The position numbers and the translations under genes are program-made. Below the pieces are notes generated by a model. The model saw only the letters and a program-made list of their open reading frames with translations, did not search any database and was not told the origin of the DNA. Source: Nitrospirota bacterium (lineage in GTDB: Bacteria > Nitrospirota > UBA9217). From it: a stretch of 64,000 bases of DNA. Positions 3,093 to 16,091 of this stretch are shown piece after piece (the first letter of the stretch is position 1; every line of letters begins with the position of its first letter). Location: NCBI GenBank assembly GCA_963737155.1, contig CAVTRN010000002.1:1952001-2016000 (forward strand), in the 5' to 3' direction.

Positions 3093-4349
3093 TTATGCAG
3101 CCTCCTTGAACTGAAATGATGTCCTGGAGTAATCAAAAACACTATTATCTCGCACGATGGCAAATATGATCCGGAGAAGCTTGCGTGCGACAGCGATCAA
3201 GGCCTTGGTCCTTAGCATGCCCCGATCAAGGTATCTCTGATACTGATGTTCCATAACGCAACCCTGACGAACCATATTCATCGCGGCAAAATATAAGAGT
3301 TTCCGCATCAGGGGACGACCACGCTTGGAAATACGACGAGTCCCCCGGTATTTGCCGGAGCTGACTTCAAATAGATCCAGACCGGCGAGTTTCATAATTT
3401 CCCCGATGGTGCTGTACTTCCGAAAGTCGCCCACTTCACCAATGAGGCCAGCAGCGGTAACTTCACCGATTCCTTTGATCGAAAGAAGAGAATTGCTGTA
3501 GGGAATCTGTTTAAGATGATGACTCATTTCCTTTTCCAAACCTTCCGTAAACTTTTCAGAGGCTTCCATGGCAGCAAGAATTGCTTGGGTCTCGAGGAGG
3601 ATGCTTGCTTGGCCCTCAACCACGCCTATGGACGCTCCCGCTGCCTCGTAGAGTGCTTTGGCACAGTCTTCCTTCAGTCTTCCCCGGCTCACCTTTCTCA
3701 TTGTTCCGGTCAGATTATCAAGACCGTATGCGACAAGACTCTGAGGTGCCGGGCAGTGCTTCAATAAGTAGTGTGCGGTTGCAGTCTTTACATTTTTCAC
3801 CACTTGGAGAAACTCGGGGAAGATGATCGCAATCAAGCTCTGGAGTTGGTTCACCAACGCCGTATGGCGCTCCGTGCTCCTTTCCCTGGCCTGAGTAAGC
3901 CTTCGAAGCTCAGCAGCAGGCCCTTCCGGGATCACGACCGTAAGGGCACGGCCAAGCTCTATGATATCTGCGATTATCTTTGGGTCTTTCTGATCGGTTT
4001 TGTTCGGAGAATTACCCTGGAGCTCCTTGACTCTTTTGGTATGCATGGGATTCACTTGCACAAGTCGCACACCCCGTGCTTGCATAAAATGTACGAGAGC
4101 CTCTCCATACGGGCCGGTGGACTCATACCCAAAAACAATCTCATCAAGGCGATGAATCTCCTTTGCTCTTGATATCCGCTCCCAGAACTCCCAGCAGCCG
4201 GCTCCGTTATTTGGAAAGGAGAAGGGCTTCACGTCAGTCCCATCTGGGCAGCGTCAGTATCCAAAATGCTTGTCTTTGCTGATGTCTACCGTCACGATAA
4301 GAGCCTTCCCATTGACTATCTGTTGCTTTTTTGTTTTAATGATCTTCAA
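3093..4349 (-). pseudogene. IS110 (DEDD) transposase interrupted by an in-frame TGA at codon 32
   Basis: TTG start at 4349 after AAAGGAG. Reads LIVTVDISKDKHFGY*RCPDGTDVKPF (TGA at 4256-4254), then ESTG, KTDQKD, SIKGIG and SSGK..ISKRGRPLMR IS110 motifs. Confidence 0.85.
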
Positions 4350-9890: not shown

Positions 9891-10496
9891 TCACGATGTG
9901 GCATGAAGTATTTTTTTTACCATGGCGCGCTGTTTCTTGTGCTCATGCCGCTCCATTGCATAGAACATGATGCCGGCCAACACATAGGCGAGAGCAAGTA
10001 GCGCCCAGTGGTCCACATTTAGCAGCCCCGGCAGGGTGGATGTTCCCATATCGCCCGTTTTGTAAAAACCTTCAAGCTCGGGGTAGAAGGCGGAGAACAG
10101 CAGTGTCCCACTTCCCATACCGGCCATCGTAACCAACGCATCCAGCCTGCCTGACGCCAAGCCGACAACGGCTGTACCCGGGCAGTATCCGCTGACAAGG
10201 TACCCGAGTCCAAACAGGGCGCCTCCGACCAACTGGGGCCAGAGGAATGTAGGAATGATCCAAACCCTGCTCATGTCGAGGACCTTGAGATCGGATAAAA
10301 GGCAGAGCCCGGTTGCGGCCACCAGGATTGCGGAGAACATCATCTTGGGCACGGCAAAATCGGTTCGATAGAATACGCCAGTGAGCCTGTGGGGGTTGCC
10401 CATTCCTCCCCGTTCAAGGAAGAAGCCGAAGAACAGGCCGATGACTACGGCCATTGCAAGATTAACGGTATCGCTCAAGACAAGGGGTGTGCTCAT
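9891..10496 (-). CDS. YeeE/YedE-family sulfur-compound transport membrane protein
   Basis: GLFFGFFLERGG, VGGALFGLG..SGYCPGT motif; its ATG overlaps the TGA of the upstream paralog. Confidence 0.88.
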   Translation of the reverse strand: MSTPLVLSDTVNLAMAVVIGLFFGFFLERGGMGNPHRLTGVFYRTDFAVPKMMFSAILVAATGLCLLSDLKVLDMSRVWIIPTFLWPQLVGGALFGLGYLVSGYCPGTAVVGLASGRLDALVTMAGMGSGTLLFSAFYPELEGFYKTGDMGTSTLPGLLNVDHWALLALAYVLAGIMFYAMERHEHKKQRAMVKKILHATS

Positions 10497-10999
10497 GACC
10501 ATAACCTCCTGAACAGCGCCGCGAACAGAAAACCACTCGTGAACATGGCAATCACAAAGACCCATCCGGACAGGGCGAACTGGGCGCCACCGGTCAGGGC
10601 AACGCCGCTTGTGCATCCGCGCGCGAGTCTGCTGGCAAACCCGAGGATAATGCCGCCGCCGAAAGATGTTATCACCCGAATCCCCATAGACATTGACGAT
10701 CCGCGGTCAAATCGAACCCTGAAACCGCGCGATATGAGCACGCCGATCAGCGCTCCGATCAGGACCCCGGTGACTTCGAGAAAGGTCCAGTCCTGAAAAG
10801 GAGGGCGCTCAAGATATTTCGACAGAGAGGTGAGGGTCGCCGTATATCCAGGGGCCAAGTTGTTTAGTGCCGTCCCTGCAGCCACTGTAAAGGCCCGTGA
10901 TGCACCGAGTCCCTGTCCCGCAATGATGAACGATGCGAGAAGCGTGAGCCCGAGACCGGCTCCCGCAAGATAGGGAGACCAGAAACCATGTTTATTCAT
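10493..10999 (-). CDS. YeeE/YedE-family sulfur-compound transport membrane protein
   Basis: WSPYLAGAGLG, GGIILGFASRLARGCTSG motif; GGAGG SD. Confidence 0.88.
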   Translation of the reverse strand: MNKHGFWSPYLAGAGLGLTLLASFIIAGQGLGASRAFTVAAGTALNNLAPGYTATLTSLSKYLERPPFQDWTFLEVTGVLIGALIGVLISRGFRVRFDRGSSMSMGIRVITSFGGGIILGFASRLARGCTSGVALTGGAQFALSGWVFVIAMFTSGFLFAALFRRLWS

Positions 11000-11186
11000 A
11001 ACCACCTCCGCGTTGAGGACTTAATAGCCGCCATCACAACGTTGGTTCTTATATTGTAAGACTCGTGCCCCGAGACACAGCGAAAACATCCGGAGGGAAA
11101 TCAAGAATTGCTCCCTTCTTCGTTTCTTGATCGAAAACACATGAGCCGTGCTTCGTGGTTATTTTGTTAGTAAACTTCTTACTTAA

Positions 11187-11215
11187 ATTGTCGCGCCCGC
11201 TCTTTCCTTTGTCAA
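11187..11215 (-). promoter_or_regulatory. Probable sigma70 promoter of the yeeE/yedE pair
   Basis: TTGACA-N17-GACAAT on the minus strand. Confidence 0.5.
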
Positions 11216-11635
11216 GAGTAAACTTATTACTCGACGGGGTGCAGCAATAAATCGTTGTGTCCATTAGCTGCGTGTGCATGTTTATTTACAAGCCGTAATC
11301 ATTGATAGTGTCAAATGGTGGAAAGTACAAGTTTGTAGGTGAAGAGTTGGACGCAATCCGATTATTACATACTCATCTATGGGTTGAAACATGCAACACC
11401 AAAACATGATTTTTTTGCCTAAATATTATTTGCGCGATAAATTTACCTGATTCACTGGTAAAAAAAAACCGAAATTGGTGGATGATTTCAATCAGAATCA
11501 ACACTGGTAAAATTGAATCGGAATGATTGGAAGAAATCATTTGTAACGTGTGGTAGATTTACTGGATTGACCGGAAGGAATCACCCGGAATGAGTGGAAG
11601 GATTCATCGGAATGTGCAATATGCGTGGTGGGTTC

Positions 11636-12346
11636 TCGGCCCGGCTCTGCACCATGAACCTGATGCTACACAGCATCGGGACCGATAAAGACCTTCCTAT
11701 CATCGTTTCGGACTCTCTTGTCGCCGATCCTGGAGACCGATTCGATATCGTGCTGACCAATCCTCCCTTCGGCAAGAAGAGCAGCACAACCATCGTAGCC
11801 GATAACGGTAAGATATCCAGGGAAACCGATTTCATCGAGCGCGAAGACTTCTGGGCCACGACATCGAACAAACAGCTTAATTTCATCCAGCATGTAAAAA
11901 CTCTTTTAAAGCAGAATGGCCGTACAGCAGTTGTTGTCCCGGATAACGTCTTGTTCGAAGGAGGAGCAGGGGAGACGGTCAGGCGAAAGCTCCTGCACGA
12001 GTGCGACGTGCACACGCTCCTGAGCCTGCCCACGGGTCTGTTCTACGCTCAGGGCGTTAAGGCGAACGCGCAGTTCTTCGACAAGAAACCGGCAAGCGAA
12101 ACGCCCTGGACAAAGATGCTCTGGATCTACGATCTCCGCACGAACATGCACTTCACGCTCAAAACCAACTCCCTCCAGCGCTCCGATCTTGACTAGTTCG
12201 TGAAATGCTTCAATCCCGGGAATCGCCATCAGCGCAACGCCACGAGGTCCGAAAAGAAACCCGAAGGCCGCTGGCGATCATACAACTACGATGAACTTGT
12301 TGCCCGAGACAAGGCAAGCCTCGACATCTTCTGGCTCGATCTCTAA
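11636..12346 (+). pseudogene. hsdM: Type I restriction-modification methyltransferase (HsdM), C-terminal relic
   Basis: ARLCTMNLMLH..DIVLTNPPFG..QLNFIQH..VVVPDNVLFEGG..LPTGLFYAQGVKAN. The N-terminus is missing, there is a TAG at 12194-12196, and the frame continues to DKASLDIFWL; no hsdS or hsdR. Confidence 0.88.
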
Positions 12347-12651
12347 GGCAATAATCTAGGAATCTGGAAGGTTGTCGGAAGCTTCGAGGGATTTGTCCTT
12401 GTAAATGACCATATCATCATCAGCAGCATCAGATCAGATCAGCAGCAGCAGTGTAACCTTACCAATAAGTTTGCCGGATCTGGAAGCATAAGATTGCCGG
12501 AAAAGCCGCTTTAACGTGTTCCTTTATTATCATTTTTTCGATCACTGTGGAACCATAAGATTGCCGAAAGTGCAGAATGGAACCATAAGTCTGCCGAAAG
12601 TGCAGCAATTGAGAATTAATAATTTTAAATGACCGGGTAAATTATTTTAAC

Positions 12652-12680
12652 TTGTAATATATCGAATATCGGCATATAGT
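12652..12680 (+). promoter_or_regulatory. Promoter/operator for higBA-2
   Basis: TTGTAA-N17-TATAGT with an imperfect palindrome in the spacer; ATG 8 nt downstream. Confidence 0.65.
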
Positions 12681-12688
12681 ATATATTA

Positions 12689-12979
12689 ATGATTCAGAAC
12701 ATTTCCAGCAAAACAGCGCAGGATGTATATGATGGAGTAAACAGTCGGAATGCTCGCAGGCTTCCACGGGAGCTACATGCTAAGGCACAACGGCTTCTCG
12801 ATCAATTGAATGCTGTCATTATTTTGGAGACTTTAAAAACCCCACCAGGAAACAAGCTGGAAAAAATGAAAGGCAACTTAGATGGGTACTGGAGTTTGAG
12901 GGTTAATGACCAGTGGCGAATCATCTTCCGATGGGAGAAAGGTGACGCTTTTGACGTGGATATTGTCGATTACCATTGA
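12689..12979 (+). CDS. higB: HigB toxin (second locus)
   Basis: AQRLLDQLN..LKTPPGNKLEKMKG..WSLRVNDQWRIIFRW..IVDYH. Confidence 0.92.
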   Translation: MIQNISSKTAQDVYDGVNSRNARRLPRELHAKAQRLLDQLNAVIILETLKTPPGNKLEKMKGNLDGYWSLRVNDQWRIIFRWEKGDAFDVDIVDYH

Positions 12980-12990
12980 GGAGAAATACT

Positions 12991-13281
12991 ATGCTGCCAA
13001 AGAAAAGACCACCTACACATCCGGGAGAGATGTTACTCAAGGAGTTTTTAGAACCAATGGGCATGACTCAAGTAGAGCTTGCCAAACATCTTGGTTGGAC
13101 CTGGGCTAGACTAAACGAAATTGTCAACGGCCGAAGAGGGATGTCCGCAAACTCAGCACTCACTCTCGGAGAGGCTTTCGGCACAGGTCCTGAGTTCTGG
13201 CTTAACCTTCAGCGGGATTGGGATCTGTGGCAGGCACTGCGGAAACATAAACCCGTAATGGCGCTGAAGAAAGCAAGTTGA
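12991..13281 (+). CDS. higA: HigA antitoxin (second locus)
   Basis: PPTHPGEMLLKEFLEP..RLNEIVNGRR..FWLNLQRDWDLW; GGAG SD. Confidence 0.92.
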   Translation: MLPKKRPPTHPGEMLLKEFLEPMGMTQVELAKHLGWTWARLNEIVNGRRGMSANSALTLGEAFGTGPEFWLNLQRDWDLWQALRKHKPVMALKKAS

Positions 13282-13675
13282 GATTTGTGAAAAATAAAGT
13301 TAATTCACCGTTAGAGCTAATCGTTGGCTTATCCAATAATGGTTCAATAAAAGGATCGTCAATAGGAGGAACTACTAGTTATTACGAATTTACAGCTGCA
13401 ACATCAATTGGTGATCATAATAGGTAAACTTACAATACTCGTGCTCAATCGCATTTCCGCTCAATTTTCTGGAAGTATAAGCTTGCCGCTATCGTTTTCG
13501 ATTATTGCAATTAAAGTTATTTCAAGCCCTTACAACTTACCCTGAGCGAACACATACTAATTGGAAGCAAAAGTCTGCCGGAGGGGATTGGAACCATAAG
13601 CCTGCCGCAGCGGCAAACTTATGGTTCTAGTCACAAGCAGCAGCAAAACAGGATTGAAAGCATAAACCTGTCGTA

Positions 13676-13703
13676 ATTTGACATAATATACATTATCAGA
13701 CAT
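13676..13703 (-). other. dif: XerCD recombination site (dif)
   Basis: Minus strand reads ATGTCTGATAA-TGTATA-TTATGTCAAAT, versus E. coli GGTGCGCATAA-TGTATA-TTATGTTAAAT. The spacer is identical, the XerD arm matches 10/11, and the site is intergenic. Confidence 0.88.
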
Positions 13704-13899
13704 TATAATATTTATACAATTACTTTATAATAACTATATATATATTTGATTTTATTAATTTAAATTAAATTTTTTTATAACCAGCGCACTACCAATTTTT
13801 ATCGGCTAATTTATGTTTCCAACCGATATTCTTCTGGATGAAAATGACGAGAAATAATTAAGTCCGGATGGGTACCCACCAAAAAACTTATGCTTCCAT

Positions 13900-13959
13900 A
13901 AAAAATGAACCCTCCCGCCACTAAACCGTAAGAACGGTTATAGTGGCGGGAGAGTTCAT
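13900..13959 (-). terminator. Strong hairpin, probable intrinsic terminator for minus-strand transcription
   Basis: ATGAAC.CTCCCGCCACTA.AACCG-loop-CGGTT.TAGTGGCGGGAG.GTTCAT, followed by a T6 run on the minus strand. Confidence 0.7.
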
Positions 13960-14321
13960 CGTAAGCTGTCCGAAGCCCCTAGGAAGTTCGGCGAATAATT
14001 AAAAGGCAAATACAAAGGTTTTTGGAAACAGAAAAGACGTGTACCGATAACTTTAAATGACCGAGGGCATAAGCATGCATAGCTGCCGACATCGATCCCA
14101 CGGGACCCTGTTATGATCGCTTCAGAGCCTCGATTCGGAATGGATGATAATGTTCCCGTATTGTCTGGCAGGGATGAATCGGAAATGCTGATCGGTATAT
14201 ACTGATAAATAAAGAGTATGCCCTTGACCTCACCTATTTCATCAAGAACACTCCGGGATCCGGAGTTATTACCCATTTCCGGATGAATTTGAAGGAATAA
14301 TCTGATCAGTGACTGAAAATA

Positions 14322-15221
14322 TCAGAATTTCAAGCTTGTCATTGCTATAATTCGATTGGAATTGTTGTATCCTTCGTTTTGCTTGTCCAAAAATTGTGTT
14401 CCGACAGTCAAATTAAGCCTTTCGCTAACCATCCTGAAACCATAAGTAACTCCGTAATAATCGCCTCCGGTGAGCGTTGTTACATTCATTCCGTGAACCA
14501 TTGAATATTCGAGAAACATCTGAAGGTTATTTTCTTTACTTATAGGAAACAGGATTCCGGCATTGAAGAGTTCATATACGTCGCGTAGCCGTTTTTCAGA
14601 TAGATCATCGCCGGCCAGTTGACCATCGGCGTAAATCCCGAGAATCTGATTCTTCACGTAGAATTCTGTCCCGATCGATATCCCGGCACGCACGCCCCAG
14701 TAAGTCGCACTGTTGATACGCACATTGGAATATTGCTCAATAGGAACAATACCGGTAGAGAAAAACGACACAGCGGGCAGCAGTGAATCTTCCTGCTGAA
14801 CTAATAATGTCCTTTTGTAAGAAAGCTCTACGTTCCCCGCCTGTCTCGCCGTCTGTGCTGTTAGGGTTGGGCCTTCCTTAATGCTTGAAAAAGATCCTCG
14901 CAAGGCCAGTTCCGACTTCGGCGAAAGACCAGTTGTTATGACGATAGGATATTCCGTGATCGTATAGTCTGGAATGGTACTGTTTTCAGACAGTACGGCA
15001 ACGCCTATTTCAACAGAGCCCGTCTGGAGCGTATAAGGCTGCGTGGTAAAAAGGAGGCCTGTCAAGCCGTTCGTGTTGACTGGATGATTGATCATGTCAG
15101 TCTCATCACCAAATGCGATTTGAGAAAGGAAAAGGAAGAGAACGATGAATAGGGCAAGGATACAATGATGTACGACCGAGTTGATTTTATGGTGAGGCTT
15201 CGAAAATGCGGTTTGTTTCAT
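14322..15221 (-). CDS. Hypothetical exported protein, probable outer-membrane beta-barrel
   Basis: N-terminal hydrophobic signal (..QIAFG), alternating strands and C-terminal Phe (MTSLKF). Confidence 0.7.
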   Translation of the reverse strand: MKQTAFSKPHHKINSVVHHCILALFIVLFLFLSQIAFGDETDMINHPVNTNGLTGLLFTTQPYTLQTGSVEIGVAVLSENSTIPDYTITEYPIVITTGLSPKSELALRGSFSSIKEGPTLTAQTARQAGNVELSYKRTLLVQQEDSLLPAVSFFSTGIVPIEQYSNVRINSATYWGVRAGISIGTEFYVKNQILGIYADGQLAGDDLSEKRLRDVYELFNAGILFPISKENNLQMFLEYSMVHGMNVTTLTGGDYYGVTYGFRMVSERLNLTVGTQFLDKQNEGYNNSNRIIAMTSLKF

Positions 15222-15246
15222 TCCGGCCTTCTCGTTTTCGGTTATT

Positions 15247-15672
15247 TTACCGGGAAAGATAATTTTCTATTTCGAAAATATAATTCGAGTACAATTCTTC
15301 AGCCTGTTTCGCCGCGTTGAGGATCAAATCATGATCTAAAGCGTCGTATTCGTGAACCAGGCGGTTTCTTAATCCCGCCGACGGGGCGAGTTTCTCGGCT
15401 AGGCCGGCCGGAATCACGGCAAGCTCGCCAGCCTTTATAAAGCTCTGGAAATAATCGTCTGGTGCATCATTTCCGGTTTGTACTATGATATGGGTATTGA
15501 TGTCTATGGCCGCTTCTATCATTTCCTGCAAAAGCCTTTCAGATGCTTTTCTTTTATAGACATCTCTATCGTATTCTTCCCTGCTGATACCCCGGTACAG
15601 TTCAAGAGCTTTGAGGTTTTCAATAATAACCCCCATTTTTTTTCTGATAACGCTTTTTTCCAAAGGGCTCAT
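15247..15672 (-). CDS. hepT: HepT/DUF86 HEPN RNase toxin
   Basis: GLRNRLVHEY matches the RX4HXY motif; overlaps mntA. Confidence 0.9.
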   Translation of the reverse strand: MSPLEKSVIRKKMGVIIENLKALELYRGISREEYDRDVYKRKASERLLQEMIEAAIDINTHIIVQTGNDAPDDYFQSFIKAGELAVIPAGLAEKLAPSAGLRNRLVHEYDALDHDLILNAAKQAEELYSNYIFEIENYLSR

Positions 15673-16091
15673 CGCATTCCCCTTGCGTCAAGAAAAAGCT
15701 TGATTGAGTGGGCACGTGCGTCGCGCAATTTCTTTGTATCGACATACATCCTGAATGCGAGTGAATAAAACTCATGAAATATTCCGGGGGTCTTCTCATA
15801 AAGGACTAGTCCGTGCTTTACGGCGGAATATTTCAAGATAGGACTTGCCGTTCTAAGGTCAACCACATCAACATGATCGGTCCGTAACAACACTGTAACT
15901 CTGTTGGTAAGGACCAAAACATCCGCTAGGCCACTAAATAGAAAGGCAAGGTCGATGTCGCTTCGCCTGTGTACATTTCCCGTCGCAACCGAGCCGAAGA
16001 GAAGAACAAGATAGAGTTCACGGTCGAGAAAAAGAGGCGCAAGCTTCAATTTTAAGGCATCAGGCGGCGGGAAAGATACAATTTGTTTCAT
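15669..16091 (-). CDS. mntA: MntA minimal nucleotidyltransferase antitoxin
   Basis: FGSVATG..SDIDLA (GSX10DXD) and VDVVDL. Confidence 0.9.
   Translation of the reverse strand: MKQIVSFPPPDALKLKLAPLFLDRELYLVLLFGSVATGNVHRRSDIDLAFLFSGLADVLVLTNRVTVLLRTDHVDVVDLRTASPILKYSAVKHGLVLYEKTPGIFHEFYSLAFRMYVDTKKLRDARAHSIKLFLDARGMR

Follow-up and report, generated by a model that had tools for sequence, protein, structure and literature searches.

Copies of a 19-bp motif pointing at dif in a Nitrospirota genome are probably the ends of Tn7-like transposons

Why should a short sequence be repeated about ten times beside the dif site of a bacterial chromosome, with nearly all copies pointing toward it? The case considered here is a 64,000-nt stretch of the genome of a Nitrospirota bacterium (contig CAVTRN010000002.1, positions 1,952,001 to 2,016,000; referred to as the window), in which a cluster of copies of the 19-bp motif TGGAASCATAAGNYTGCCG adjoins a dif-like 28-mer. 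An original prediction, made before any database comparison, had interpreted this cluster as a terminus-organising system. The comparisons described below suggest instead, with a probability of roughly 85%, that the motif is a repeated, predicted transposase-binding site in both ends of a family of Tn7-like transposons, whose autonomous kin encode a TnsA-TnsB fusion, the AAA+ regulator TnsC, and TniQ/TnsD selectors. In what follows, G### denotes genomes and L### extracted loci or stretches. G000 is the genome of the window, with two contigs, C1 and C2, the window being on C2; g1 is the genus to which all dif-linked genomes from a phylum-wide sample belong.

At up to three mismatches the window contains 10 matches to the motif, against 0.13 expected (none of 100 shuffles reached 10), all of them within 12481–13898. 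An eleventh, more degenerate copy, with five mismatches, can be read at 12458–12476, so that the ~11 copies first reported near dif are accounted for. The strands also agree with the earlier description: eight of nine copies to the left of dif are on the + strand, the exception being 13611–13629 (−), and both copies to the right (13803 and 13880) are on the − strand, but with three mismatches each. The claim that the motif points at dif from both sides therefore holds on the left, while on the right it comes from two degenerate copies found only in G000. A 30-bp tandem at 12548/12578, a 41-bp palindrome at 13589–13629, and a copy at 13655–13673 ending 2 bp before the dif-like 28-mer (13676–13703) were all found in the sequence as described. 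The supposed likeness of the first 11 bases to a Xer half-site was not borne out beyond the bases CATAA.

The absence of full copies elsewhere is correct for the window, where the scan found none beyond the cluster, but further copies lie just outside it, and the motif extends beyond the 1.4 kb originally considered. Genome-wide, all 11 matches with up to two mismatches fall inside C2:1913244–1965629, and 15 of 25 with up to three inside C2:1913244–1965898. Since it is confined to one G000 locus, the motif is not a scattered repeat of the REP (repetitive extragenic palindromic) kind, a possibility that had been named as fatal to the first interpretation and is rejected here on the genome-wide count. 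A 153-bp block with four direct copies (window 12451–12604) recurs at C2:1916103–1916255 with 81% identity, and once more at C2:1913222, where it is truncated and adjoins an ISL3 transposase fragment. An Rfam search (E ≤1) of positions 11500–15000 returned nothing but a chance match to a microRNA family.

The copies make up arrays of two types. Type A starts with TGT(A/G)AC, followed by a terminal-type site, 4 bp, and three more direct sites (offsets, from start to start, of 23, 67–77, and 30). In type B, two or three direct sites precede an inverted site, 3 bp on, which is followed by (G/A)TCACA; the palindrome arises because this inverted terminal site follows a direct one. In the window, a type A array (12452–12596) and a type B array (13470–13635) bracket the genes higB and higA, and they are read here as the right and left end, respectively, of one 1184-bp element.

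This reading draws on an element from another phylum. The core of the palindrome was found in 58 stretches from other phyla in a species-representative genome collection, and TniQ/TniB genes abut the palindromic end in two of them (L065 and L091). The Calothrix genome holding L065 contains a complete element of 28.2 kb (G406:C53:37025–65261), whose right end consists of TGTGAC and sites at offsets 23, 77, and 30, and whose left end closes with the same palindrome and GTCACA. It is flanked on both sides by GTGAC, a 5-bp duplication. Its 898-aa protein has TnsA_N, TnsA_C, rve, and Mu-transpos_C domains (a TnsAB fusion), and it also encodes a 383-aa AAA_22/TniB protein (TnsC) and two proteins with a TniQ domain, 496 and 335 aa long, which make up TnsD and a second TniQ. 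In an alignment (A2), the type A array of the window and the Calothrix right end correspond site by site, in the same order. The genes for TnsB or TnsAB, TnsC, and TniQ/TnsD, present in Calothrix, are absent from the window element. Because the same motif and both array layouts bound a transposon with its own tns genes, the terminus-organising reading is not supported. The motif thus does occur beside mobile-element genes elsewhere, which is close in spirit to an observation that the original prediction had itself listed as speaking against it. Its fallback, that the copies are relics of an element integrated at dif, came close as to kind and was wrong as to type, the repeats being predicted transposase sites in transposon ends and neither iterons nor arm sites of an integrase.

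Beyond the Calothrix left end, at 31 bp, there is a sequence resembling the 3′ end of a tRNA. It includes T-arm-like sequence, but ARAGORN called no tRNA there; the tRNA reading also leans on a published remark about an intron in tRNA-Leu. Within this element, shortly ahead of its terminal palindrome (L108 9160–9216; G406:C53:65160–65216), there are two slightly different sites, then GTCACA and TTAT; this second end-like structure suggests a nested or ancestral end.

Features of the window element are as follows (positions and strand in the window; A1 is an alignment of left ends considered below).

12447–12451, no strand: left copy of a putative 5-bp target-site duplication, AGCAG, read from sequence and identical to 13636–13640
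12452–13635, +: predicted complete 1184-bp Tn7-like mini-transposon, non-autonomous, with higBA as cargo between its right and left ends, TGTAAC and GTCACA termini and a layout collinear with the Calothrix element
12452–12457, +: right-end terminal hexamer TGTAAC, of the 5′-TGT type, aligning with TGTGAC of G001 and Calothrix
12458–12476, +: site a1, terminal-type, CTTACCAATAAGTTTGCCG, from sequence reading and alignment
12481–12499, +: site a2, 0 mismatches, 23 bp after a1, as in Calothrix
12548–12566, +: site a3, 0 mismatches, followed by AAAGTGCA
12578–12596, +: site a4, 0 mismatches, followed by AAAGTGCA
12689–12979, +: cargo gene higB, RelE/HigB-like toxin, 96 aa (Pfam PF05015, E = 8e-18)
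12976–13281, +: cargo gene higA, helix-turn-helix antitoxin, 101 aa (NCBIfam TIGR02607, 103.7 bits vs a cut-off of 47.7; Pfam HTH_3)
13470–13488, +: left-end site b1, pointing at the terminus, 1 mismatch, a conserved island in A1
13562–13580, +: left-end site b2, 1 mismatch
13589–13607, +: left-end site b3, inner half of the palindrome, 0 mismatches, conserved in 7 of 7 sequences of A1
13611–13629, −: left-end terminal site b3′, outer half of the palindrome, 1 mismatch, conserved in A1
13630–13635, +: left-end terminal hexamer GTCACA, of the ACA-3′ type, from sequence reading and left-end comparison
13636–13640, no strand: right copy of the putative target-site duplication AGCAG, read from sequence

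The termini, TGTAAC at 12452 and GTCACA at 13630–13635, are of the 5′-TGT...ACA-3′ type, as are those in G001 and Calothrix (TGTGAC and GTCACA), and the sites are set asymmetrically, with four direct ones in the right end and three plus one inverted in the left. In relatives the a1-type terminal site reads T[TA]TACCCATAAGnTTGCCG. The a2–a3 offset is 67 bp in the window vs 77 bp in G001 and Calothrix; that from a3 to a4 is 30 bp in the window and likewise in G001, G015, and Calothrix. AGCAG is found directly outside both termini, but the putative duplication is inside a CAG-repeat tract, which makes it weaker evidence than five matching bases would ordinarily be. Neither a Pfam scan of open reading frames (ORFs) nor tblastn found tns genes in the window element, and since there are none at dif, the elements there are regarded as non-autonomous derivatives, not as autonomous members of the family.

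By record titles, the 58 stretches from other phyla come from Bacillus and relatives, Sporomusa, Syntrophomonas, many cyanobacteria, Acidobacteriota, and others. RNA genes were sought in 56 of them, the other two matching only on the other strand. At 21 of the 56, a tRNA gene (6 loci) or a transfer-messenger RNA (tmRNA) gene (15 loci) ends 27–32 bp from the terminal hexamer; other distances were 13 bp, for a tRNA at one locus, and 914 bp at one more. No tRNA or tmRNA gene was found in the remaining 33 loci, many of which are at contig ends or in tandem arrays. The palindromic left end, with its sites in both orientations, thus faces dif in the window and tRNA or tmRNA genes elsewhere. Genes of the tni type were within reach only in L065, L091, and, in a neighbouring element, L058; in G061–G065, TnsB-like genes are far from the motif. 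The Bacillus-type palindromic left end also occurs in 190 plasmid records (182 from Bacillus), so the family travels on plasmids as well; in one B. mycoides plasmid region (H1) no tns gene is annotated within 9 kb. In the Acidobacteriota locus L073, the palindromic left end is a few bases downstream of a 196-aa gene, identified from its first residues only as dcd (dCTP deaminase). L048 and L086, also from Acidobacteriota, share this left-flank sequence, and the 3′ end of the gene would be another attachment site of the family.

How such elements might generate a polarised array can be pictured by analogy with established Tn7-like elements. A transposase supplied in trans would bind the sites, the asymmetry of the ends would fix the orientation of insertion, and a TnsD-type selector would put the left end at a set distance from the attachment site, leaving a 5-bp duplication. 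In this family all sites of the right end, and most of those in the left end, are directed from the right end to the left. If each insertion turns its left end to the attachment site, almost all sites come to point one way, which is what was seen as polarity. Insertions stacked on one side of dif would give a run of sites pointing at it, with the inverted terminal site as the exception, and this matches the arrangement in the window.

The 28-mer beside the array is accepted as the chromosomal dif because it is conserved, lies on the plateau of the GC skew, and belongs to a genome encoding XerC and XerD.

13676–13703, −: dif, 28 bp, XerC arm, 6-bp centre, and XerD arm (28-mer conservation, GC-skew plateau, XerC and XerD present); inferred determinant of the attachment site

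Its minus strand shows the canonical dif layout, with two 11-bp arms, the second being TTATGTCAAAT, on either side of a 6-bp centre, TGTATA; on the + strand the XerD-type arm comes first, to the left. G011, G004, G002, and G005 share the 28-mer exactly, and that of G009 differs at one position. Cumulative GC skew reaches a plateau at C2:1952000–1972000, with dif at C2:1965676, and the XerD and XerC of G000 score 382.9 and 349 bits, respectively, against NCBIfam cut-offs of 329.6 and 335.15. The cumulative skew is also flat across the first 0.5 Mb of C2 (C2:1–500000), and placing the two contigs end to end would give replichores of unequal length (~3.0 vs 1.9 Mb); together these suggest a rearrangement or a wrong contig order.

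Around dif, the gene order in the genus is Lon, lipA, (family-2 glycosyltransferase), a variable stretch, dif, a conserved secreted protein of ~290 aa, and plsY. The variable stretch contains the dif-proximal array alone in G011 and one toxin-antitoxin module in G004 and in G002. In G000 it amounts to ~62 kb, from a truncated glycosyltransferase gene at C2:1903192 to dif at 1965676, and two further right ends occur within it, 48 and 51 kb upstream, the 1184-bp element being the dif-proximal member of a tandem pile-up. In G000 all three right ends, and in G001 at least three arrays, share one orientation at this one locus. A Pfam scan of 39 ORFs from C2:1902000–1972000 identified IS110 (two), the ISL3 fragment, chemotaxis and signalling genes, and toxin-antitoxin pairs. 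The two IS110-family transposase genes (L001 16870–18126 and L003 15093–16232, that is, C2:1916870 and 1955093) are inside the variable region, as is the ISL3 fragment (L001 12715–13050); the IS110 copy directly after the second right end may explain the missing left ends. Just left of the mini-transposon is a broken type I restriction-modification methylase gene (hsdM type, Pfam N6_Mtase; window 11594–12345), whose open frame stops at 12196, with coding sequence resuming past the in-frame stop. It is probably decayed cargo of an older element.

With up to one mismatch, the motif was found in 10 of 61 genomes, G000 included, and in six of the 14 other members of the genus; as a control, the reversed motif had no match in any of the genomes scanned. 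In G001 a type B terminus is followed after 17 bp by a type A terminus, as expected for tandem insertions, and such junctions (left end, a few bp, right end) also occur in L061, L063, and L081. A left end is present on the XerD side of dif at nine distinct loci, four in genomes and five on metagenome contigs (from ten rows, L101 and L103 being the same in sequence), with spacers to the XerD arm of 40, 38, 39, 67, 37, 36, 42, 65, and 47 bp. In alignment A1, only the 19-mers and dif form conserved islands and the spacers are saturated. The terminal sites of the dif-linked left ends are of two kinds, TGGAACC and TATACCC, and their spacers fall into two classes. The metagenome scan for a left end with dif had returned eight stretches, of which six were true and two (L102 and L104) false, being inside a coding gene; no tns genes were found on the six true stretches, whose contigs are short. 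The one other complete mini-element near dif, in the metagenomic L106, is ~190 bp long and has no cargo. In a contig of the sister genus (G015:C93; L017 ~3900–4085), a left end is followed after ~93 bp by ATTTGAC, the first seven bases of the XerD arm, after which the sequence diverges, as if dif had been lost or replaced.

Several observations weigh against the assignment of the arrays to Tn7-like transposon ends and have to be set beside the Calothrix comparison. No cognate transposase was found close to home: TniQ-domain genes occur in four of 61 relatives and homologues of the Calothrix TnsAB in three of 64 genomes of the family, but in both cases in none of the 14 other genus genomes, and a tblastn search of 80 kb around dif and of the relatives' loci was negative for tns remnants (many of the relatives are incomplete assemblies, for which absence means "not found" only). 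The single Tn7-like element of G000 (C1:1469884–1474796; TnsA-like protein of 224 aa, TnsB of 652 aa, TnsC-like protein of 302 aa, TniQ of 365 aa) has separate TnsA and TnsB genes and an end that starts with TGTCACA and contains AT-rich, AATTAAC-type repeats unlike the motif. L106 is flanked by ACAAC and TATAT, with no duplication; G005 has dif without the motif nearby and G002 has dif without a left end. Finally, the copy at 13655–13673 and the two copies to the right of dif are not accounted for in detail.

As a candidate mobiliser, the C1 element is unlikely, since its end repeats differ from the motif apart from one resemblance at 13–14 of 19 positions; its TnsB is 23–28% identical to the Calothrix TnsAB. 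A TnsAB element in G020, from the same family as G000, was also set aside, having another site motif and adjoining neither dif nor a tRNA gene. That the sites were retained while the spacers diverged argues either that selection has continued to maintain mobility, with the transposase acting in trans, or that elements have come in more than once from outside. The conserved sites might also serve the host, though nothing supports this.

Granting that the arrays are transposon ends, it can still be asked whether dif itself is the attachment site in this genus, with the left end placed on the XerD-arm side ~40 bp away. We consider this somewhat the better bet. The competing explanation is that the place beside dif is historical, going back to one chance ancestral insertion followed by turnover of cargo through homologous recombination or local events. 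It would fit the narrow occurrence of dif-linked examples (3 of 401 genomes sampled across the phylum, all in g1, plus the six true metagenome contigs), the synteny of the flanking genes, the variation of the spacer from 36 to 67 bp, which is looser than at tRNA sites and could descend from a single ancestral insertion, and the failure to find a selector gene for dif in the genus genomes, in the 80 kb around dif, or in the relatives' loci; narrow occurrence, loose spacing, and the missing selector count directly against homing to dif, as do G005 and G002, where dif stands without the motif and without the left end, respectively. It is less easily reconciled with several elements in one orientation at one locus and nowhere else in a complete genome, with the tandem left-end/right-end junctions, with two terminal-site types and two spacer classes, or with 19-mers conserved against saturated spacers, which would need continued selection for mobility or repeated arrivals. 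The use of other sites by other lineages of the same family (tRNA, tmRNA, the dcd-like 3′ end) was counted in favour of homing to dif, and a purely historical placement is considered rather unlikely, though it deserves to be taken seriously. The fuller proposal is that a Tn7-like lineage took dif as its attachment site, with a TnsD/TniQ selector reading the 28-mer or the bound XerCD, and that mostly tiny, non-autonomous elements mobilised in trans have built an island at the terminus; for this the odds appear about even. Insertion left end first, ~40 bp from the XerD arm, would then produce an island of toxin-antitoxin and accessory genes at the replication terminus.

The explanations in which the motif serves the host or Xer recombination fare less well. 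If it were a site for a host terminus protein or an extra Xer half-site, acting in termination, SMC unloading, or Xer recombination, one would understand why the copies cluster at dif and mostly point at it, why arrays are conserved beside dif in G011, G009, and G004, and how they are kept up with no resident transposase. The same motif and layouts, however, form the ends of a transposon that encodes its own transposase and is flanked by a 5-bp duplication. The motif also adjoins tRNA and tmRNA genes in Bacillota, Cyanobacteria, and other phyla, with no dif nearby, and occurs on the 190 plasmid records. Within the genus, G005 and G002 retain dif without the motif or without the dif-proximal array, respectively, and copies beyond dif on the XerC side were found at none of 11 other dif loci, four of which hold ≤510 bp there. 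The Pfam models for Ter (PF05472) and RTP (PF02334) had no match in G000, with positive controls in E. coli and B. subtilis. The roles first envisaged (fork trap, condensin unloader, Xer scaffold) are thus extremely unlikely, and a polar fork trap of the Tus-Ter or RTP-Ter kind in particular was rejected, the far-side copies being degenerate and restricted to G000, which has no Tus or RTP homologue. A left end derived from a transposon could also have been kept by the host for some role at dif, such as Xer or FtsK access, and sites conserved between diverged spacers at a constant position ~40 bp from the XerD arm, in species without the transposase, are what such domestication might leave; but the same two dif loci lack the left end, the same site arrangement is seen at tRNA and tmRNA left ends without any dif, and no candidate binding protein is known, so that this is considered very improbable. 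The modules do resemble, in adjoining dif and carrying toxin-antitoxin cargo, the Xer-dependent modules of other bacteria, which carry such cargo too, and the motif copies might then be accessory or arm sites for recombination at dif, as in integrative mobile elements exploiting Xer (IMEX) or cer/psi-like sequences. No second dif-like site (up to seven mismatches to the 28-mer) was found in window positions 10001–16000 or in ten relatives' loci, however, and no integrase was found among the 39 chosen ORFs of C2:1902000–1972000 (not every ORF called there); none of 11 genome-wide Phage_integrase matches is inside that region. The modules end in TGT/ACA termini flanked by a direct repeat of 5 bp, and the arrays are on the XerD side, whereas cer accessory sequences flank the XerC side. 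This explanation, too, is extremely unlikely. Iterons of a replicon or integrase arm sites were rejected on the same 39 chosen ORFs, a selection of those called in the region, among which there is neither a Rep protein nor an integrase.

The closest known relatives of the predicted transposon ends appear to be those of the tRNA-targeting Tn7-like clade with a TnsA-TnsB fusion, which, according to PMC9881144, includes the type I-B2 and I-D CRISPR-associated transposons. In that paper's description, the left end is the one nearer the attachment site and has its sites in both orientations, and the termini deviate from TGT...ACA in ~20% of the clade. The window element is similar in its TGT/ACA termini, asymmetric multiple sites, and target-facing left end, and possibly in a 5-bp duplication; it differs in that the elements have no transposition genes, are very small (1184 bp, and ~190 bp in L106), adjoin dif and not a tRNA gene, and reside in Nitrospirota and not Cyanobacteria. 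Tn7 at attTn7 (glmS) is inserted in a fixed orientation and at a fixed distance from the site read by TnsD, leaves that site intact, and accumulates in tandem (PMC11406308). Oriented insertion near an intact site and tandem accumulation are thus shared with Tn7, but the binding-site sequence and end layout are different, the target is dif and not the 3′ end of a gene, and there are no resident tns genes.

Other elements that make use of recombination sites are comparable in part. The Tn5053/Tn402 "res site hunters" are described in PMC11406308 as Tn7 relatives in which TniQ directs insertion to the res site of a plasmid; unlike the window elements they are without TnsA, have their own resolvase, and target serine-resolvase res sites on plasmids rather than, as inferred here, a chromosomal XerCD site. 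The IS1202-family elements, single-gene insertion sequences of 1.5 kb found at dif or pdif, 5 bp from the XerC arm (PMC10132070), also keep a fixed short distance from a Xer site in one orientation, but the window has Tn7-like ends ~40 bp from the XerD arm. Cargo modules, often toxin-antitoxin, accumulate at dif in IMEX and the Acinetobacter dif modules as well; those have dif-like borders and are moved by XerCD, in contrast to the borders here, which are arrays of predicted transposase sites with TGT/ACA termini. A dif-like site reported inside Tn6022 elements is another near precedent.

Tn7-like ends are thus known as a kind, and dif as their attachment site would be new. It was not found in print as an attachment site of Tn7-like elements, including in the texts of PMC10293859, PMC11406308, PMC9881144, and PMC8649781 (supplements, which may list sites, apart). 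If the proposal is true, the "safe harbour" repertoire of these transposons (glmS, tRNA, comM, res, and others) gains a universal dimer-resolution site, the elements would be a chromosomal analogue of the res hunters, and one may ask how FtsK-driven Xer recombination accommodates insertions ~40 bp from the XerD arm. Quite apart from this, a tempting false lead is removed, the polarised array at dif being readable as mobile-element anatomy. With one 19-bp end motif and its two-end layout, a transposon family can be recognised in at least five phylum-level groups, judging by record titles, and a search with the motif also finds many orphan ends that gene-based surveys would miss. Tn7-like elements, it appears, can be tiny non-autonomous derivatives with a toxin-antitoxin pair only, or with no cargo at all.

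Three degenerate copies lie outside the 1184-bp element.

13655–13673, +: degenerate motif copy between the left end and dif, 3 mismatches, without a counterpart in other spacers
13803–13821, −: putative degenerate relic site on the XerC side of dif, 3 mismatches, G000 only
13880–13898, −: putative degenerate relic site, 3 mismatches, 77 bp from the 13803 copy, which is the a2–a3 spacing

The latter two are in ~520 bp of G000 between dif and a conserved 299-aa gene, a segment that the relatives do not have. At a guess, they may be remnants of an element that lay in the inverse orientation on the XerC side. The genome has just two copies of the 20-mer GAAATAATTAAGTCCGGATG, one between these two sites (window 13851–13870) and one just outside the right end at 1916103 (C2:1916066–1916085), which hints at a past rearrangement joining both places.

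Further to the right, at 13904–13949, is a 46-bp GC-rich, hairpin-like repeat with at least five other copies of 85–93% identity (C2:1745445, 2134782, 1185922, and 1377546, and C1:1466510); it looks like a REP- or terminator-like sequence unrelated to the motif. A HepT-like ribonuclease gene (Pfam PF01934) with an upstream partner ORF (window 15247–16091), beyond dif and beside polysaccharide export genes, makes up a second toxin-antitoxin-like pair, on the opposite side of dif from higBA.

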